From Cyanidioschyzon merolae (lineage: Eukaryota): DNA of 64,000 nt. The stretch lies in the NCBI GenBank assembly GCA_000091205.1, contig AP006499.2. One strand, 5' to 3'. Shown piece after piece: positions 10,321 to 48,732 of this stretch. The notes under the pieces are model-generated. The model was not told where the DNA came from. It worked only from the letters and a program-made list of their open reading frames with translations, and ran no database searches. Made by a program: the position numbers and the translations under genes. Positions within the stretch are counted from its first letter, which is position 1; every line of letters begins with the position of its first letter.

Positions 10321-11832
10321 TTGTTGGGCGAGGTGTGTTGTCGCTGTGGGTGCACCAAACGGACCGAATCGGTCGTTGATTTCATAACATACGAACTGCG
10401 TGCAAGCACAAGTTCTTGCTCATCGATCGTTAGAAGGTGTCCGAGCTCAGTACACAACGTTGTTCGCAGTATGCAGGCGACACCAGGCCTTGCGGTGCAA
10501 GCTGGTACGACGCCTGAGGTACGCAAATGGAAAGCTGACAACTCGCGGCAGCTTTACTCAGACGCAAAGGCATCACCCGAGAAACTGCTTGAAAGAGCGT
10601 GGCTGCGGCTTGGCCGGCGCGATGCAGACGCCTTGCGAGAAACGTCAACGCGAGCTACTGCCAATGCATCAGCGTCAGCGGCAGAGTTGGCTACCAGGGC
10701 ACCGTTATCGCCAGTGCTGTCTCGGGTAGATAGCAAGGACGCCAAGCTCCACTATACGCTGCAGCGCAGCACGTCCAAGGCTGTCATCTATGCTTCCGAG
10801 GATCCTCATCGGAACAGCAAGAACAAGGCTATCTCCAAGAGACAACTCGTCACTGAATGGACTCCCGACAAACGCATAGCCATGCAGGTGCCGGATGAAC
10901 GCCCGCGGGGCACTGTAACGGCAGCAACTGGCCCGGTGTCGACGGCGGTCCTGCGAACGCCAACCGCCTCTACCCCGGAACGACGACCCTGGACGCTGGG
11001 CGACTTTGAGATCGGAAGGCCACTGGGGCGCGGCAAATTCGGTAATGTTTACCTTGCACGGGAAAAAAGGACGCGCTACATTGTGGCACTCAAGGTCCTG
11101 TTCAAGGCTCAGTTGCAGAAAGCCGGTGTCGAGCACCAACTGCGTCGCGAGATTGAGATCCAGTCGCATCTACGGCATCCGAATATTCTTCGCCTTTTCG
11201 GGTATTTCCACGACGATACGCGCGTCTTCCTAATCCTGGAATACGCCGGGCGAGGTGAGCTGTACCGCGAACTCCAGAGATGTGGCCGTTTCAGCGAGCG
11301 CCGCACGGCGACCTATATCGCGCAACTCGCACACGCACTGGAGTACTGTCACCGCAAGCACGTTATCCACCGAGATATCAAACCGGAAAACTTGCTCCTA
11401 GGCATCTTCGGAGAGTTGAAGATTGCCGATTTTGGTTGGAGCGTGCACGCACCGCAGTCTCGTCGGAATACACTGTGCGGCACCCTAGATTATTTACCGC
11501 CGGAAATGGTTGAGGGCGCGCCACATGATGCGCGCGTCGATATCTGGAGTTTGGGCGTGCTCACCTACGAGTTCCTGGTGGGAAATCCGCCTTTCGAAGC
11601 GCAGAGTCACGAAGAGACGTACCGACGCATTGCACGAGTGGATCTGCGCTTCCCGCCGAGCGTCTCTGCGGGGGCGCGAGACCTCATCCGGAAGCTGCTG
11701 GTGCGCGACCCGGCCGAGCGTCTGCCACTCGATGCTCTGCTGAAGCACCCGTGGATTCAGGCCAATGCTGAGTTCGTGCCACGAATCGGTGAGTTGTCTT
11801 TACCGCCGCGAATGCACGCTGCGGAACAATAG
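10321..11832 (+). CDS. Aurora-family Ser/Thr protein kinase with a ~250-aa non-conserved N-terminal extension
   Basis: The kinase domain is [28 protein letters not shown] ... [11 protein letters not shown] ... DFGWSVHAP ... [13 protein letters not shown] ... [21 protein letters not shown]. The [12 protein letters not shown] and DFGWS signatures are typical of Aurora kinases. Confidence 0.85.
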
Positions 11833-12256: not shown

Positions 12257-13048
12257 TCAGCGCTCGTCGGAACGAGCCTCCCGCTTATCCTCCTTCAGCG
12301 CGTCTCGTTTGTAAATGACCTCATCGATGAGACCGAACGCTTTCGCGGCCTCCGCAGACATGAAATGATCGCGCTCCATTTTGTCCGCAATAACATGCTT
12401 ATTCTGACCCGTGTGCTTGGCGTAGAGCTCGTGCAAACGCTCACGCAGAAACAGAATCTCATTGGCGTGGATGGCAATATCTGAAGCCTGCCCGCCGGCT
12501 TGCCCACTCGGCTGATGAATCATCACACGAGCGTTCGGTAAGCAGCGGCGCTCGCCCGGCTCACCCGCGCATAGCAGCAACGATGCCATAGAGCTCGCCT
12601 GGCCCAAGCAAACCGTGTGCACCGGAGCAGATATATATTGCATGGTGTCGTAGATCGCCATCCCCGCTGAGATGATGCCCCCTGGTGAGTGAATGTACAT
12701 AGAGAGCGCCTTCGCCGGCGCTACCGACTCCAAGTACAGCAACTGCGCAACGACGAGAGAGGCCACGGTATCCGTGATAGGACCGTTGAGCACAATAATA
12801 CGCTCTCTGAGCAGACGCGAGTATATGTCGTAGACGCGCTCTCCTCGCGGTGTCTGTTCGAGGACGATGGGTACGAGTTGCGCTTGAGCGGCGTCAGCGC
12901 CTGCTGTCGTGGGCCCAGCGTCGAAGCCCGGGCCGGTTCGGTTCGGAATCCCAGGGCGGAACCAGGAGTAAAAGCGAGCACGTGCACCTAGACGCGAAAA
13001 AGTTTGCGCAGACGGCAGGATTCGAACCTGCGCGGCGAGACACCACAT
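12257..13048 (-). CDS. clpP: ATP-dependent Clp protease proteolytic subunit ClpP, organellar, with an N-terminal presequence
   Basis: The ClpP core is [24 protein letters not shown] ... [21 protein letters not shown] ... [14 protein letters not shown] ... [16 protein letters not shown], which gives the Ser-His-Asp triad contexts. The annotated ATG (13046-13048) lies inside the tRNA-Ser gene described next. Confidence 0.85.
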
Positions 13049-13139
13049 GATACCGAGGCGTCAGCGCGAGGCAATGTATACCAGCACTGGCTGCAGAACG
13101 CGTTCGAGTCATGCACCTTAACCACTCGGTCACGTCTGC
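13007..13139 (-). tRNA. tRNA-Ser (anticodon CGA) with a 51-nt intron at the canonical 37/38 position (about 13052-13102)
   Basis: The cloverleaf was folded by hand on the minus strand. 
- The acceptor stem is GCAGACG/CGTCTGC, 7 of 7 paired, with discriminator G. 
- U8 is present; the D-stem has 3 bp (class II) and the D-loop contains GG. 
- The anticodon stem is CATGA/TCATG, 5 of 5, with loop C-U-CGA-A-A (U33, A37). 
- A long variable arm GGTG..CGCC is typical of Ser. 
- The T-arm is GCAGG-TTCGAAT-CCTGC, perfect. 
The mature length is 82 nt and the intron is 51 nt. Confidence 0.7.
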
Positions 13140-13575
13140 CGGATAATCATACCATTGCGTGCGAAATCTGTATATAAAGGGTATTGGGGGAGTTGCGGCT
13201 CGAGGCGGCGCTTGGCGCTAGCGGCGCGCGTGTGCCTTCGTCCACCCTGACTTGCTCGCTCGATTGCTTGCGGGAACGACCTGGCAATCGAGCTGCGCAC
13301 TGTGCGGGGAACGCTTTCACAAGCTCACCGAGCGACTGGCGTTAAGCTGAGTGCGCGAATGCCTAGTGTCTTCGGCGCAACGGGACACTGACGCTGCTCT
13401 CTTGTTTCCCTTAGAATAGTGGTGTAAGGCACGTGATCGCGCACGGGGTCTGTGTTCGATGAGTCACGTGCCCGCTGCGCCTGTGTGTGTTGATGATGCG
13501 CGAACAAGGTATGAAGTGATCGAGTGTTGTAACGTTTAGGTCCTTCTCTGGCGTGATATGAGCGGGGGATAGGAA

Positions 13576-15786
13576 TTAATCGCGAACATAGCGACCGGTT
13601 ACTCGGGGAAGTGCATGCAGGCTGCCGTTGACTGTTACGAGGATCGCGGGGAGCGCGCTCGAGTCGCTGCTCTTGTTCAAGGGGCTCTCACGATGCTGAG
13701 TCGCAATGCGTGAGCGGTTCGCGCTGGTTAGCAGGGCGACCTGCTGTTCGAGCTTCTGCGTGACACGCTCTGCGCAGCGCATGTCATTTTCAATATCGGA
13801 TAGTGTTGATGAGGACTCGCTGGGCGAGCGCCAGCGCGAGCTGTGCTCCGGATCAGCAGAAACTGGGCTGCGCAGCAGAGTGTCCGCTGGTGAGGGGTGC
13901 TCGTGCGCTGGGCTTTCTCCGGCAGAGTGAACATGCTCGGCGAGTGCGCAGGGTGAGGGATCTTCCGATGCCGAGTCGTCGCCCGTACTAGGGACCAGAC
14001 CGGCAGCGATCTCCCGCCGTACTGCAGCAGCCTCGACCCGCAAGGCAGCGTTTGCGAGCATCATTCCCTCCAGCGTCGTCACGAGATTTTCAATAACGTC
14101 AATGGGTGGCACCCTGGCAAATGCACTCGCAACTAGTTTGGTATGCTCGCCACTCGCGTCACCACAAGCAGATGCATGTCTTTGGAGCAGACTAGCGGCT
14201 TCGTTCAAAAGTCTTGCATGGTCGGAATCGGTGCAGTCTCCTAGAAGAGAACGCAATCGAGAAGCGAGCGCGCCGAAAACCTCCGAATGACTCGCACACA
14301 ATTGGTCGAGGGAGCTGCTTGACGCATTCGTGAAATCCCGAGCATAGGGTGGATCCCACTCCATCGAGTCCGTATTGGCTTTGTGCTGGAAGGCGCCTTC
14401 GTCACTGGTATCGATCGGATCTCTCTGCTTCTGGTGTTTGTTGCTGGATCGACAGCAATCCTCGTGACGAAGGGTAGCTGTTCGCTGGTTCGCTGGACGT
14501 GGTCCGCTCGTCTCGATGGACAGGCTCGGTGATGCAGATCGCCGCGAGTCATGATCGACTTGTTCAGCTTGTTCCTCGTATGGTCGGGGCACGGGCTCTC
14601 CGGTGATCTGAGACGCAGAAGCAGCCGGTCTTGACTCGGCTGTACTCGCTTTCGCATCGGGCTCGGCGTCTGCAGTTATCGTTTTGCCACTGCCAACATC
14701 TTCGCTCTTCGACGAGGGCATTTCAAGATTCCTGCAACCGATTTGCGCCACGTCTCGCGAGCCTCTCAATAAAGCATATGAGCGACGAGTATCAGGTTCT
14801 GGGGACTTGCCTGAAGGCAGCCCCCTGTGACCTGGAGCTGCTTGGGAGTCGTCCGCGAAACGCACGCAGACTGATCCAGGACGGCCTGCAAGCCCCAGTA
14901 CAGAGTCGCTTTGCGAGCCACGCTGACCCTCACAAATCGCTTCCGTATCCGGGTCAGCGTCCTCGGCTGGCCGTGGTGCACAGCTGTCCTCGGTACACCT
15001 GTGTCTCCAAAAGGATGCGCGAGAGTTCGCGGCAACGTGAACGAGTGCTCGCGTTCGCAGCTCGAGAAACCTCCAGCATGCTACAATTATCAGGCGCAGC
15101 TTGCACCATACATAAACTGCGCGACGAAGAATCGCCCTCCACCAGATTCCCATTGTAGCACGCCAGCGCCAGTGCGCCAAGCCCCCAAGTGCCAGCAAAA
15201 CTGCCGCCACCATAGCACCAACAGGCCGAGCGTGCTGACCCCAGCACTCGCGGGGTGGAGCGGTGGGCCAGTGAGAGACCAGCGCCTTCGTCCAGTGCTT
15301 GATGCGCAACAACGCGTGTCCAGGTGTTGCGGCCGCTTCGCCTTGCCCAAAGATGCGCCCATACTCTGGGTACTCTCGTAAGAGCGTCTGATGCGCGAGC
15401 GCACGGATTGACTCTCCTCGTCTTTCCGCAGCGACCCAGTGCGCGAGTGCCGCACCGCTTCCGATAACCATACCGATGTAGACTCGCCGGCAAGCCCGGT
15501 ACCAGGCCTCAGGGAAAGCGCTTGAACAGCTGCGCTCCGCGTCAGGTGCAACCGTTGACGCCGCTACGCACACGTTGTCCATTGTTCGGCGCAAGCGCAG
15601 CGGGAATTTGAATTGATGTCGCTGGGGCTCGCCGCCCTGCCTGAATCGCTGGCGGACGGACGGACGCCCTGGGGGTGAGGCGGCACCAACGGCGACGGCA
15701 GCGGGCCGCATTGCGATGCGCATCGGAATCGGCACGTTTCGGAGGTGCCACCGATGCGTTCGTTTGATCCGATATTGTAAAGACAA
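13576..15786 (-). CDS. Hypothetical protein, 736 aa, with a low-complexity Ser/Ala/Asp/Glu-rich C-terminal half and an N-terminal hydrophobic region
   Basis: This is the longest ORF in a GC-rich region and has coding-like composition. No recognisable domain was found, and the true start may be internal. Confidence 0.3.
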   Translation of the reverse strand: MSLQYRIKRTHRWHLRNVPIPMRIAMRPAAVAVGAASPPGRPSVRQRFRQGGEPQRHQFKFPLRLRRTMDNVCVAASTVAPDAERSCSSAFPEAWYRACRRVYIGMVIGSGAALAHWVAAERRGESIRALAHQTLLREYPEYGRIFGQGEAAATPGHALLRIKHWTKALVSHWPTAPPRECWGQHARPVGAMVAAVLLALGGLAHWRWRATMGIWWRAILRRAVYVWCKLRLIIVACWRFLELRTRALVHVAANSRASFWRHRCTEDSCAPRPAEDADPDTEAICEGQRGSQSDSVLGLAGRPGSVCVRFADDSQAAPGHRGLPSGKSPEPDTRRSYALLRGSRDVAQIGCRNLEMPSSKSEDVGSGKTITADAEPDAKASTAESRPAASASQITGEPVPRPYEEQAEQVDHDSRRSASPSLSIETSGPRPANQRTATLRHEDCCRSSNKHQKQRDPIDTSDEGAFQHKANTDSMEWDPPYARDFTNASSSSLDQLCASHSEVFGALASRLRSLLGDCTDSDHARLLNEAASLLQRHASACGDASGEHTKLVASAFARVPPIDVIENLVTTLEGMMLANAALRVEAAAVRREIAAGLVPSTGDDSASEDPSPCALAEHVHSAGESPAHEHPSPADTLLRSPVSADPEHSSRWRSPSESSSTLSDIENDMRCAERVTQKLEQQVALLTSANRSRIATQHRESPLNKSSDSSALPAILVTVNGSLHALPRVTGRYVRD

Positions 15787-46638: not shown

Positions 46639-48732
46639 ACTCCGGAATGGTTCGATTCAGTAGACGGGATATACCATTGTTCGCCGTCAGAGCTGCAGCG
46701 CGCTTCGTGGTGTACCAACGCCGACACCGGTGCGTCCCATGCGCGCGCGCAACGCAGCGCGCAGACTGCTATGCAAACGAGCAAACTCCCGATTCTGGGC
46801 CCGCAGCGTTTCGATCTCCCGGCAGAGCTGAGGGAGGATCCAGCGTTCGATGAACAGACACTCTGTACGATATCTCTGAGCGACCGCGCGCCAGTAGAAC
46901 AGCTCTGTAGAATTTGTTTGGCATCTCGAACAAGACAGCTCCATGGCGGATCCGTGTAAACCACCAGTTGCACTTTGGTCAAACGCCGTCGTCGAAACGC
47001 GTGTTGCTGCAACTGCGGCCTGCCGTCTGTGATGACACGGATCTGGATCCGTGAAGCATGCGTGCATGCGTGCACGCACGTATACGTACATAAATGTATA
47101 GATTCTGACGTGCGTGGCAGTCATCCATTCACAGATGCACCTGCACGCATACGTGCATACACGTACTCACTCATGCGTTCAAGCATGCCCGCCGCGCAAC
47201 ATTCCCCCAGTGCCTGTGCTCAAAACGAACCCATGTTGGTAAAGACAACATTCTTTGTCATTCGCTCTGTTTCGCCGGGGATCCTCGCACGTCACCTTTG
47301 CAAGAAACCGTCGATGTTTGACAGTGCCCACGAGACCATGTCTCTGGATGCTGCACCAGTAACCGCAGTGATGTTAACGTTGGCCAGTCGCCCGACAAAC
47401 CGCAGATGCGCTTCTCGGTTCGTCCGTACCGTACATTTCCGTTTCATGCGTGCAGCCTATCCCTTGCGTTATTGCCGGAGACGATCCTTTTTATCAGGAG
47501 AGCCGTTCGCATCCATTCACAAGCGCATGCCCAACGCAATCTGCGTTCGCGTTCTGTTCATGATGAACACGCGCTTCGGGCTGGGACCGCGCGGCGCCTG
47601 GGGGTTGCGCTTAACGTTCACGTTCTGCTAATCGCCGCTAATCGCAGGATTCGGACGGATGCGGGCACCACCATGGCAATGGAACATCGCTCGCTCGTCG
47701 TATACGGTAGCAAAACATCACCACTGAATTGCTTGCTTCGGAGCGAAAGAATTTGTTTTGACGTCCGAATTCGCCAGAAGGTGCCATTTAGAACATGTAA
47801 GCGACTATGTCACTGTAAACACCACGATACCACAAACCCTGTGAGATCCGAGCAAGTTCGCTGCCTCCTATACGTGTCTTTGGGTGCGCTCATGGCTCAT
47901 TGTCGGCCTCCGCGTGCAGGGCGGTCACAGAGCAAGATTCGAAGCAGCACCAGTGGCATTCGACTGAGCGTAACAAACCACGATATGCTTCCGTCCGTCC
48001 GGGAATGGTGAGGCTCTGGCCCCACTTCGCAATGCAAGGTGCAGGAAACCAACGGAGGAACGGAGCTCGCGCGCCAGCAAGAATTAGTTCTCCACATGAG
48101 CCTCCAGGCGTTCGCTGTGTTTTTTGTCGAGTCCATGGGACTTCGGCCACCGGTTGAAAGTATCGGGTGAAGGCAACGCTTAACGTGCACCATGATCGGA
48201 GATATCGTACATAATTTGGAGGTTTGCATCGTTTTCAAGCGGGTGCCTTTGAAGCGAGCGCTATCAACAGCCAGTAACGTGGCCAGCGGCAGCTCAGATA
48301 ATCTCCCGGGTGCCTGGTGCTGTTCGGGGAACCCACAGCACCGGGTTTCATCAGCACATTGTGGCCGTCGTCGAGAGACCAAGCAGCGGCACCAGTCCAG
48401 ACACGGCCGCAAGTAGCCGAGTCCGCGCTGCGCACACGCAACCGCACTCGTTCGGGCATTGACGGGCGACTCGGGATGCGTATGGCAACCAGCGAGCTCC
48501 TCCTCGGGCTGCGTACTTGCTTGCACTGTCAAAGAGTTCCCTCAGAGCGCCATGACATTTTGAAGACTGTGTGTATGTGAATGTGTGTGTGTGCTGAATG
48601 AGAGGCACGCATCGGTGGCCTCTCGGCGCACAAAGCAACCAAACGATGCATCCATGTTCTCGCCGCGAAGAGACGCGTCACCCAATGCAGCGCTATGATT
48701 GGGCATGTTTCAAAGACAACGCACTGACTGCT

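Follow-up and report, generated by a model that had tools for sequence, protein, structure and literature searches.

The DNA analyzed here is a 64,000-nucleotide (nt) stretch of contig AP006499.2 of Cyanidioschyzon merolae (GenBank assembly GCA_000091205.1), which we refer to as the window. Its minus strand carries a gene for a serine transfer RNA (tRNA) with the anticodon CGA, tRNA-Ser(CGA), and the gene for the organellar protease ClpP. The two share 42 nt, and the annotated start codon of ClpP falls inside the tRNA. The features of the locus are given below in window coordinates, with RNA polymerase III abbreviated to Pol III, open reading frame to ORF, and coding sequence to CDS.

13007..13139, minus strand: tRNA-Ser(CGA) gene, class II, with a single intron; 133 nt, mature length 82 nt before CCA
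13103..13139, minus strand: tRNA 5′ exon, positions 1-37, 37 nt, with the anticodon CGA at 13106-13104 (dissection)
13052..13102, minus strand: tRNA intron, 51 nt, at the canonical 37/38 site (dissection and ARAGORN -i)
13007..13051, minus strand: tRNA 3′ exon, 45 nt, from A38 to the discriminator G (dissection)
13171..13178, minus strand: TATA-like element TTTATATA, a probable Pol III promoter, read from the sequence
12997..13001, minus strand: T5 run, a probable Pol III terminator, 5 nt past the tRNA 3′ end (+6 to +10)
12257..13048, minus strand: ClpP CDS, 263 codons plus stop (ORF and Pfam), identical to BAM81975.1 / XP_005538011.1
13046..13048, minus strand: ClpP start ATG, tRNA positions 41-43, in the 3′ strand of the anticodon stem (ORF and dissection)
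13007..13048, minus strand: same-strand overlap of tRNA and CDS, 42 nt, in which the 3′ exon forms ClpP codons 1-14 (codons shared by orthologs)
12968..13006, minus strand: ClpP codons 15-27, the remainder of a putative mitochondrial presequence, ending RFY/S
12308..12847, minus strand: ClpP protease domain, residues 68-247 (Pfam PF00574)
13110..13112, minus strand: AUG out of frame with ClpP, 64 nt 5′ of the ClpP AUG, within the 5′ strand of the anticodon stem

The locus was compared across six lineages from three genera: C. merolae; L001, which is Cyanidium caldarium; L002, a Logan assembly clustering with Cyanidiococcus; L003, a lineage from a JGI hot-spring metagenome; and L017 and L018, both genomes of Cyanidiococcus yangmingshanensis.

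The tRNA-Ser(CGA) gene

The Rfam tRNA model RF00005 matches 13139..13007 on the minus strand with 48.9 bits (E = 2e-7 for the 64-kb window; gathering score 29) and is aligned completely, from model position 1 to 71. This is the only match to RF00005 in the window, even with a cutoff of E ≤ 0.5, and the T-loop motif GGTTCRANYCC likewise has its single occurrence in the window inside this tRNA. The alignment places a 53-nt insertion within the anticodon loop. ARAGORN with its intron search (-i) returned tRNA-Ser(cga) at the same locus, with a 51-nt intron and a matching cloverleaf. The default mode of ARAGORN reported no tRNAs in the window; that miss is due to introns not being searched in this mode and is no argument against the gene.

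Dissection of the sequence gave an acceptor stem paired at 7 of 7 positions, a D stem at 3 of 3, an anticodon stem at 5 of 5 (CAUGA/UCAUG), a variable arm of 4 bp, and a T stem at 5 of 5, together with U33, the anticodon CGA, A37, GG in the D loop, and the T loop GTTCGAATC. The 3′ exon consists of A38, the 3′ strand of the anticodon stem, the variable arm, the T arm, the 3′ strand of the acceptor, and the discriminator G. RNAfold and RNAalifold did not recover the cloverleaf across the D and anticodon region, and the cloverleaf pairs were therefore scored explicitly. A previous sequence-only reading of this DNA had folded the tRNA by hand as class II, on the same strand as ClpP (it named no strand; both genes are on the minus strand), with the acceptor, anticodon, and T stems fully paired, a 51-nt intron at 37/38, and a mature length of 82 nt. 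Every detail of that fold proved right in the dissection, in which all 24 pairs are formed, and the Rfam model and ARAGORN with intron search both accept the locus, the check that the reading had proposed.

The 3′ end of the intron, CCUCGGU, is able to pair with U33-A36 of the anticodon loop. Folding prediction alone, and for only some of the precursors, gives structures in which U33-A36 is paired with the conserved intron end UCGG. The last 7-8 nt of the intron (ACCUCGGU) are common to Cyanidioschyzon and Cyanidiococcus, the remainder having diverged, and pairing with the anticodon loop would account for the conservation of this end. No ATG occurs in any of the six orthologous introns, an observation that is statistically too weak to interpret.

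A metagenome scan with a 25-mer from the 5′ exon found three C. merolae-type contigs alone, each with the copy adjacent to ClpP, and added no lineage. This result suggests that the gene is single-copy.

Probable promoter and terminator signals

The TATATA at 13176-13171 begins 37 nt 5′ of tRNA position 1, and an upstream TATA is found at -36 to -41 in all six lineages. On the other side of the tRNA, the T5 run falls within ClpP codons 16-18 (ACT TTT TCG); the orthologous runs are T4 in Cyanidiococcus and L003 and T6 in Cyanidium. Both signals of the C. merolae type are thus present and kept in the six lineages: C. merolae tRNA genes are described as having a TATA-like sequence upstream of them and, downstream, a T-stretch terminator, in an organism without TFIIIC homologs, and those with introns have no promoter signal between the exon segments (Soma et al., PMC3728597). 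Introns of 11-69 bp interrupt 27 of the 43 nuclear tRNA genes of C. merolae (PMC3728597), which agrees with the suggestion of the sequence-only reading that a long tRNA intron fits a lineage of unusual tRNA gene architecture. The tRNA-Ser(CGA) gene is in this respect ordinary for C. merolae; its intron, anticodon, and signals are not novel in themselves.

A promoter and terminator scan of the window relied on bacterial consensus patterns and is uninformative for a eukaryote. A TATA-like sequence in the C. merolae intron (GGTATACAT), about 30 nt before the ATG, was considered as a promoter and dropped, as it is not conserved in the relatives.

The ClpP gene and its overlap with the tRNA

The ClpP ORF is an exact match to GenBank BAM81975.1 / XP_005538011.1 of C. 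merolae 10D, so the public annotation already starts at the ATG in the anticodon stem. The Pfam family PF00574 (CLP_protease) matches residues 68-247 with E = 9.2e-78, covering positions 2-181 of the 182-position profile. The closest solved structure is human mitochondrial CLPP (1tg6; E = 2e-74), with an alignment that begins at residue 51 and in which the Ser, His, and Asp (MERD) motifs line up; we take the residues in these motifs to be the catalytic ones. Residues 1-56 form an N-terminal extension equal in length to the human CLPP presequence, and other eukaryotic mitochondrial ClpPs have extensions of 26-70 residues ahead of the LVP(M/I)V(L/I)E motif. By its sequence, then, this is an ordinary mitochondrial-type ClpP.

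The N terminus resembles a presequence, putatively a mitochondrial one on the basis of its composition: residues 1-30 include four Arg and no Asp or Glu. A motif R-x-[YCT]-[SP] is conserved at residues 25-28 (33-36 in Cyanidium), with S at the last position in five lineages and P in Cyanidium, and resembles an R-3 processing site. If the 14 residues encoded by the tRNA are subtracted, just 13 residues precede the R-x-Y/S site.

The ClpP ATG sits 3 nt past the tRNA intron, and the A at -3 is tRNA A38. The sequence-only reading had assigned the start to 13046-13048, in the 3′ strand of the anticodon stem directly after the intron, and the ORF and the dissection agree. It had also described the tRNA as embedded in the 5′ end of the ClpP gene; this holds for the last 42 nt of the tRNA (13048-13007), which overlap the CDS, whereas the remainder of the tRNA precedes the start codon. 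The next in-frame ATG in the ORF translation is Met116, which is within the protease fold.

Since the anticodon stem is CAUGA/UCAUG, there is an AUG on each of its strands. The one on the 5′ strand (13112-13110) shares its frame with a 79-amino-acid ORF at 12894..13133 on the minus strand, which overlaps the ClpP start, and a messenger RNA (mRNA) starting upstream of 13112 would carry this upstream ORF. In the two Cyanidiococcus genomes the shorter intron brings the 5′-strand AUG into frame, but a stop codon follows five codons on.

Conservation across the Cyanidiales

All six lineages have the tRNA, with its intron, on the ClpP strand and directly 5′ of ClpP. The orthologous tRNAs score 48.8-50.2 bits with RF00005. 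Their introns are 42, 41, 41, 37, and 36 nt long, compared with 51 nt in C. merolae, and have diverged in sequence; placement at 37/38 gives A38 in every lineage, and the exons differ very little. All 24 cloverleaf pairs are intact across the four distinct orthologous mature sequences. Only two stem differences are seen, both in Cyanidium and both compensatory (A-U to C-G in the D stem and G-C to A-U in the T stem), and other differences in the mature tRNA are confined to the loop of the variable arm. The 5′ exon is identical in five lineages, and the single difference in Cyanidium belongs to the compensated D-stem pair. On this comparative evidence, the tRNA gene is genuine and under selection, and the compensatory changes speak indirectly for its function.

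The ATG in the tRNA is in frame with the ClpP core, with no stop codon before the core, in six of six lineages, and the annotated or deduced N termini, MWC[LSY]AAQVRIL[PS]SA, are the translated tRNA 3′ exon. Codon 4 (L/S/Y) varies along with the variable-arm loop, and the change from Pro12 to Ser in Cyanidium results from the compensated T-stem pair. Between the end of the tRNA and the QLVP core, five lineages have a spacer of 126 nt and Cyanidium one of 168 nt (14 additional codons); the two other frames of the spacer contain stops in most lineages. Gene order is 86% collinear among Cyanidiales genera (PMC9812998), so the adjacency of tRNA and ClpP is by itself weak evidence, and the unbroken reading frame is the stronger point.

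Prokaryote-style gene callers applied to metagenomes have begun ClpP at internal TTG or GTG codons, giving products of 242 and 178 amino acids (L003 4001, P0003), and the N termini of ClpP in databases differ for this reason. The residues encoded by the tRNA are present in eukaryotic annotations only.

The ClpP gene of Galdieria partita (GCA_025991245.1, L020 5001-5923) has its own ATG, with the start ATGATGTGGCAATGGACT, and a spliceosomal intron (GTAAGT...CTGCAG) after codon 6; no tRNA was detected within 5 kb on either side of it. Contig L019, from a relative, gave no tRNA match. From the genomes compared, the fusion of tRNA and ClpP appears to be specific to the Cyanidiales (Cyanidioschyzon, Cyanidiococcus, and Cyanidium). 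The Galdieria start and the tRNA-derived start of the Cyanidiales have the hexamer ATGTGG in common. This is probably chance, but it could be a hint at how the 5′ end of ClpP was swapped.

Where translation of ClpP starts

Over the 18 codons from 15 to 32, differences at codon positions 1/2/3 number 4/5/11 between C. merolae and L002, 3/7/12 between C. merolae and L003, and 4/4/10 between L002 and L003. Synonymous changes appear from about five codons past the tRNA (CGT/CGG, CTA/TTG, GCT/GCA, CGC/CGA, TCC/TCT, TTC/TTT, and CCT/CCC/CCA). In its pattern of substitution, the sequence that directly follows the tRNA behaves as coding sequence does.

None of the six lineages has an in-frame ATG between the tRNA end and the ClpP core. 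In L017 and L018 there is also no one-base near-cognate of AUG in frame from the tRNA end to QLVP, and past the tRNA end C. merolae has none before codon 34. With no start codon or near-cognate downstream in L017 and L018, the start must lie in the tRNA 3′ exon, where the in-frame candidates are the ATG at codon 1, ATC at codon 10, and CTG at codon 11. The AUG, with A38 at -3, is on sequence grounds the obvious candidate.

ClpP might instead begin at a non-AUG codon, either ATC or CTG at codons 10 and 11 or a codon just downstream, the ATG in the stem being an accident of longest-ORF annotation. The stem of the tRNA would hold this ATG in place whether or not it is used, the ATC and CTG are in frame, and further near-cognates are found past the tRNA in some of the lineages (TTG at codon 20 in L002; ACG, TTG, and GTG at codons 22-24 in L003). 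These downstream codons are not conserved, however, as the absences in L017, L018, and C. merolae make plain, and a start at codon 10 or 11 would still be inside the tRNA gene, so that the overlap stands. Moreover, the AUG comes earlier, and a scanning ribosome would use it first if it is on the mRNA. We regard a non-AUG start as unlikely.

Ribosome profiling of C. merolae is reported to have revised 161 start codons (PMC11808204, GEO GSE273424). The pipeline given there drops reads that map to tRNAs ahead of genome mapping, and ClpP codons 1-14 are therefore invisible in that profiling.

Transcription of the two genes

The sequence and its comparison across lineages show that both genes are real and that the 42-nt overlap exists and has been kept in three genera of the Cyanidiales; as far as DNA and evolution are concerned, we consider the overlap solid. 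The explanation that we think probable is that two real genes share DNA on one strand, with ClpP starting in the tRNA exon and expressed from a separate mRNA made by RNA polymerase II (Pol II). Pol III would make tRNA-Ser(CGA) from the TATA at -37 to the T-run, and the 51-nt intron would be excised by the tRNA splicing endonuclease and ligase. The ClpP AUG would be tRNA positions 41-43 and codons 1-14 the tRNA 3′ exon; these codons and the next 13 would encode an Arg-rich, acid-free presequence of about 27 residues before R-x-Y/S. The ClpP mRNA would be made by Pol II as a transcript of its own that continues past the T-run.

RNase P, RNase Z, and the splicing endonuclease would be able to act on an mRNA that included the complete pre-tRNA, and whichever of them cut it, the AUG would be lost or detached. 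The mRNA would have its 5′ end within the tRNA gene, past the 5′ strand of the acceptor and in either the 5′ exon or the intron, since the AUG must survive processing and the upstream out-of-frame AUG must be avoided. Lacking the acceptor 5′ strand, such an mRNA could not take up the pre-tRNA fold and would be spared by all three enzymes. Most likely, if speculatively, the mRNA starts inside the tRNA gene and has part of the intron as its 5′ untranslated region (UTR). The arrangement would have arisen in a Cyanidiales ancestor under genome compaction, where ClpP probably lost its own 5′ end and took the ATG of the neighboring tRNA.

A gene at 13576-15786 on the same strand lies upstream of the tRNA; it encodes a protein of 660-740 amino acids with no Pfam domain and is a conserved neighbor. 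Only about 400 bp separate its stop codon from the TATA of the tRNA, which leaves little room for a separate ClpP promoter. The longest Logan and JGI contigs with the ClpP ORF are all genomic, and none is a transcript assembly.

More tentatively, the locus may serve two polymerases at once, with the TATA and the open chromatin around it driving both the Pol III tRNA and a Pol II start downstream, and with the intron as the ClpP 5′ UTR. Pol II would begin further downstream, inside the tRNA 5′ exon or the intron, and the intron would have been kept in six lineages because it serves as this UTR. Through exaptation, the tRNA 3′ exon would have become the first half of a peptide for mitochondrial targeting, and the tRNA and the presequence would constrain each other, as in the T-stem change that forces Pro12 to Ser in Cyanidium.

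Several points weigh against a separate Pol II message that starts in the tRNA exon. The conservation of codons 1-14 is fully explained by the function of the tRNA, from which coding constraint is inseparable here, and the codon-position counts come from only six related lineages and are not independent. The message would have to include, at its 5′ end, the T5 terminator of Pol III as well as a stably folded tRNA, and the out-of-frame AUG at 13112-13110 would precede the start if transcription begins upstream. No promoter-like element is conserved within the six orthologous introns. Active tRNA genes in yeast repress adjacent Pol II promoters, which makes the arrangement look costly. That an mRNA includes 13048-13007, where it would start, and whether it would be capped are predictions made from DNA. 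The ribosome-profiling study lists six genes without a distinct start codon, and ClpP could be among them (PMC11808204).

It is improbable that the tRNA and ClpP come from one precursor, made by Pol III read-through or by Pol II from a shared TATA, with the RNase Z cut forming the 5′ end of the mRNA in the manner of tRNA-snoRNA (small nucleolar RNA) dicistrons or of tRNA punctuation in organelles. The two genes do lie next to each other on one strand, one conserved TATA stands upstream of them, and the T-runs, T4 in Cyanidiococcus, are short; dicistronic tRNA-mRNA and tRNA-snoRNA units exist in plants (PMC8166872). The cut, however, would take away the sole AUG, and the RNA that remained would be uncapped and, in C. 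merolae and Cyanidiococcus, would offer no start codon ahead of the core. A second run, T4, 30 nt downstream (CGC TTT TAC) would halt Pol III. Pol III transcripts, furthermore, are normally neither polyadenylated nor translated.

The tRNA could also be contained in a spliceosomal intron missed by the annotation, or lie at its margin, with a short upstream exon supplying the true ATG. This has precedents of a kind, in that 23 of 39 C. merolae introns host stable RNAs (bioRxiv 10.1101/2025.12.01.691491) and Galdieria ClpP has an intron after codon 6, and an AG within the T stem of the tRNA (GCGCAG/GTT) is read from the sequence as being in phase with the ClpP ORF. Yet the RNAs catalogued as intron-hosted are snoRNAs, RNase MRP RNA, and sieRNAs, with no tRNA mentioned (bioRxiv 10.1101/2025.12.01.691491), and even with an acceptor in the T stem, CDS and tRNA would overlap. 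From the tRNA 3′ end to the codons for R-F-C-S-W-F-R-P, the sequences of L002, L017, and L018 contain no AG, and therefore no splice acceptor is possible there in Cyanidiococcus-type sequences. Four of the six lineages lack an ATG between the TATA and the tRNA, and in the upstream sequences no exon with an ATG is conserved. Around the tRNA we did not find the flanking donor and acceptor together with an upstream coding exon that a host intron would have, and we consider this explanation very improbable. A candidate for a one-codon exon and donor, ATG/GTATGA, located 16 nt upstream of the tRNA, was discarded, being absent from the orthologs.

That the overlap is altogether a longest-ORF artefact, a rule that three genome annotations could all have used, and that ClpP has no presequence or starts at an internal Met, is hardly credible, given that a start at Met116 would delete the N-terminal third of the protease fold and that the region upstream of the core has coding-type substitutions and in-frame indels. 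The sequence-only reading had left the choice between an overlap and a non-AUG start or upstream exon; the unbroken ORF in six lineages, the coding-type substitutions, the absence of near-cognates in L017 and L018, and the absence of an acceptor in Cyanidiococcus favor the overlap.

Comparison with known systems

The intronic tRNA genes described for C. merolae (Soma et al. 2013, PMC3728597) are from the same organism and of the same gene class, and tRNA-Ser(CGA) is like them in its TATA, its T-stretch, and an intron in the 11-69 bp range. The intron of this gene is at the ordinary 37/38 site and not ectopic, and the gene is not permuted. The words overlap, ORF, and protein-coding are nowhere present in the main text of that paper (PMC3728597).

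An intron in tRNA-Ser(CGA) is not unusual for eukaryotes, as yeast SUP61, also a tRNA-Ser(CGA), has one at 37/38 too; that intron is much shorter, and SUP61 is not known to overlap a CDS.

The dicistronic tRNA-mRNA units of land plants (PMC8166872) likewise combine a tRNA with a neighbor on the same strand, at a distance short enough for a common transcript, and tRNA-snoRNA units have also been reported from land plants (Kruszka et al. 2003, cited in PMC13578239). In the plant units the tRNA is intergenic or untranslated, tRNAs that overlap a CDS having been set aside from the analysis (PMC8166872). Here, by contrast, the tRNA exon is coding sequence with the start codon: 42 nt, including the ATG, are ClpP coding, and the tRNA does not lie outside the CDS. 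If the tRNA were cut out of a common transcript, the message would therefore be destroyed.

Overlaps between tRNA and protein genes are familiar from organelles, where they span a few to tens of nucleotides on one strand of compact genomes, and where a single polymerase makes polycistrons that are resolved by RNase P/Z cleavage or by editing. The present case differs in being nuclear, in involving a Pol III and a Pol II gene, and in sharing 42 nt that include the initiation codon. Human CLPP (1tg6) is similar in having its core from residue 57 or 58, after an extension of about 56 residues, and in the conserved Ser, His, and Asp motifs. Its presequence is ordinary coding sequence, whereas the first 14 residues of C. 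merolae ClpP are dictated by a tRNA.

The overlap is not mentioned in the material retrieved by full-text literature searches or in the parts available to us of a C. merolae long-read mRNA paper, the intron preprint, and the main text of the ribosome-profiling paper. A conserved same-strand overlap of a nuclear tRNA gene and a CDS thus appears to be undescribed.

Other features of the window

A protein kinase gene (Pfam Pkinase) at 10321-11832 on the plus strand converges on the 3′ end of ClpP in C. merolae and its closest relatives. A weak match to mir-3149 at 47066-47166 on the minus strand (29.6 bits, E = 0.17; gathering score 100) is almost certainly due to chance.

Implications

Nuclear tRNA genes and protein genes of eukaryotes are normally separate units transcribed by different polymerases, and active tRNA genes disturb adjacent Pol II genes. 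In every Cyanidiales genome examined, representing three genera, an apparently single-copy tRNA gene and the gene for a conserved organellar protease nevertheless share 42 nt that include the start codon. There is a practical side to this, as pipelines that discard tRNA-mapped reads miss the ClpP start and gene finders that forbid overlaps would mis-annotate it. Confirmation of the mRNA would mean that a tRNA exon can be turned into protein-coding sequence, here part of a targeting peptide, and that Pol II and Pol III can both be productive on the same strand of the same DNA. Genome compaction in these algae would then be able to lock two unrelated genes into co-evolution.

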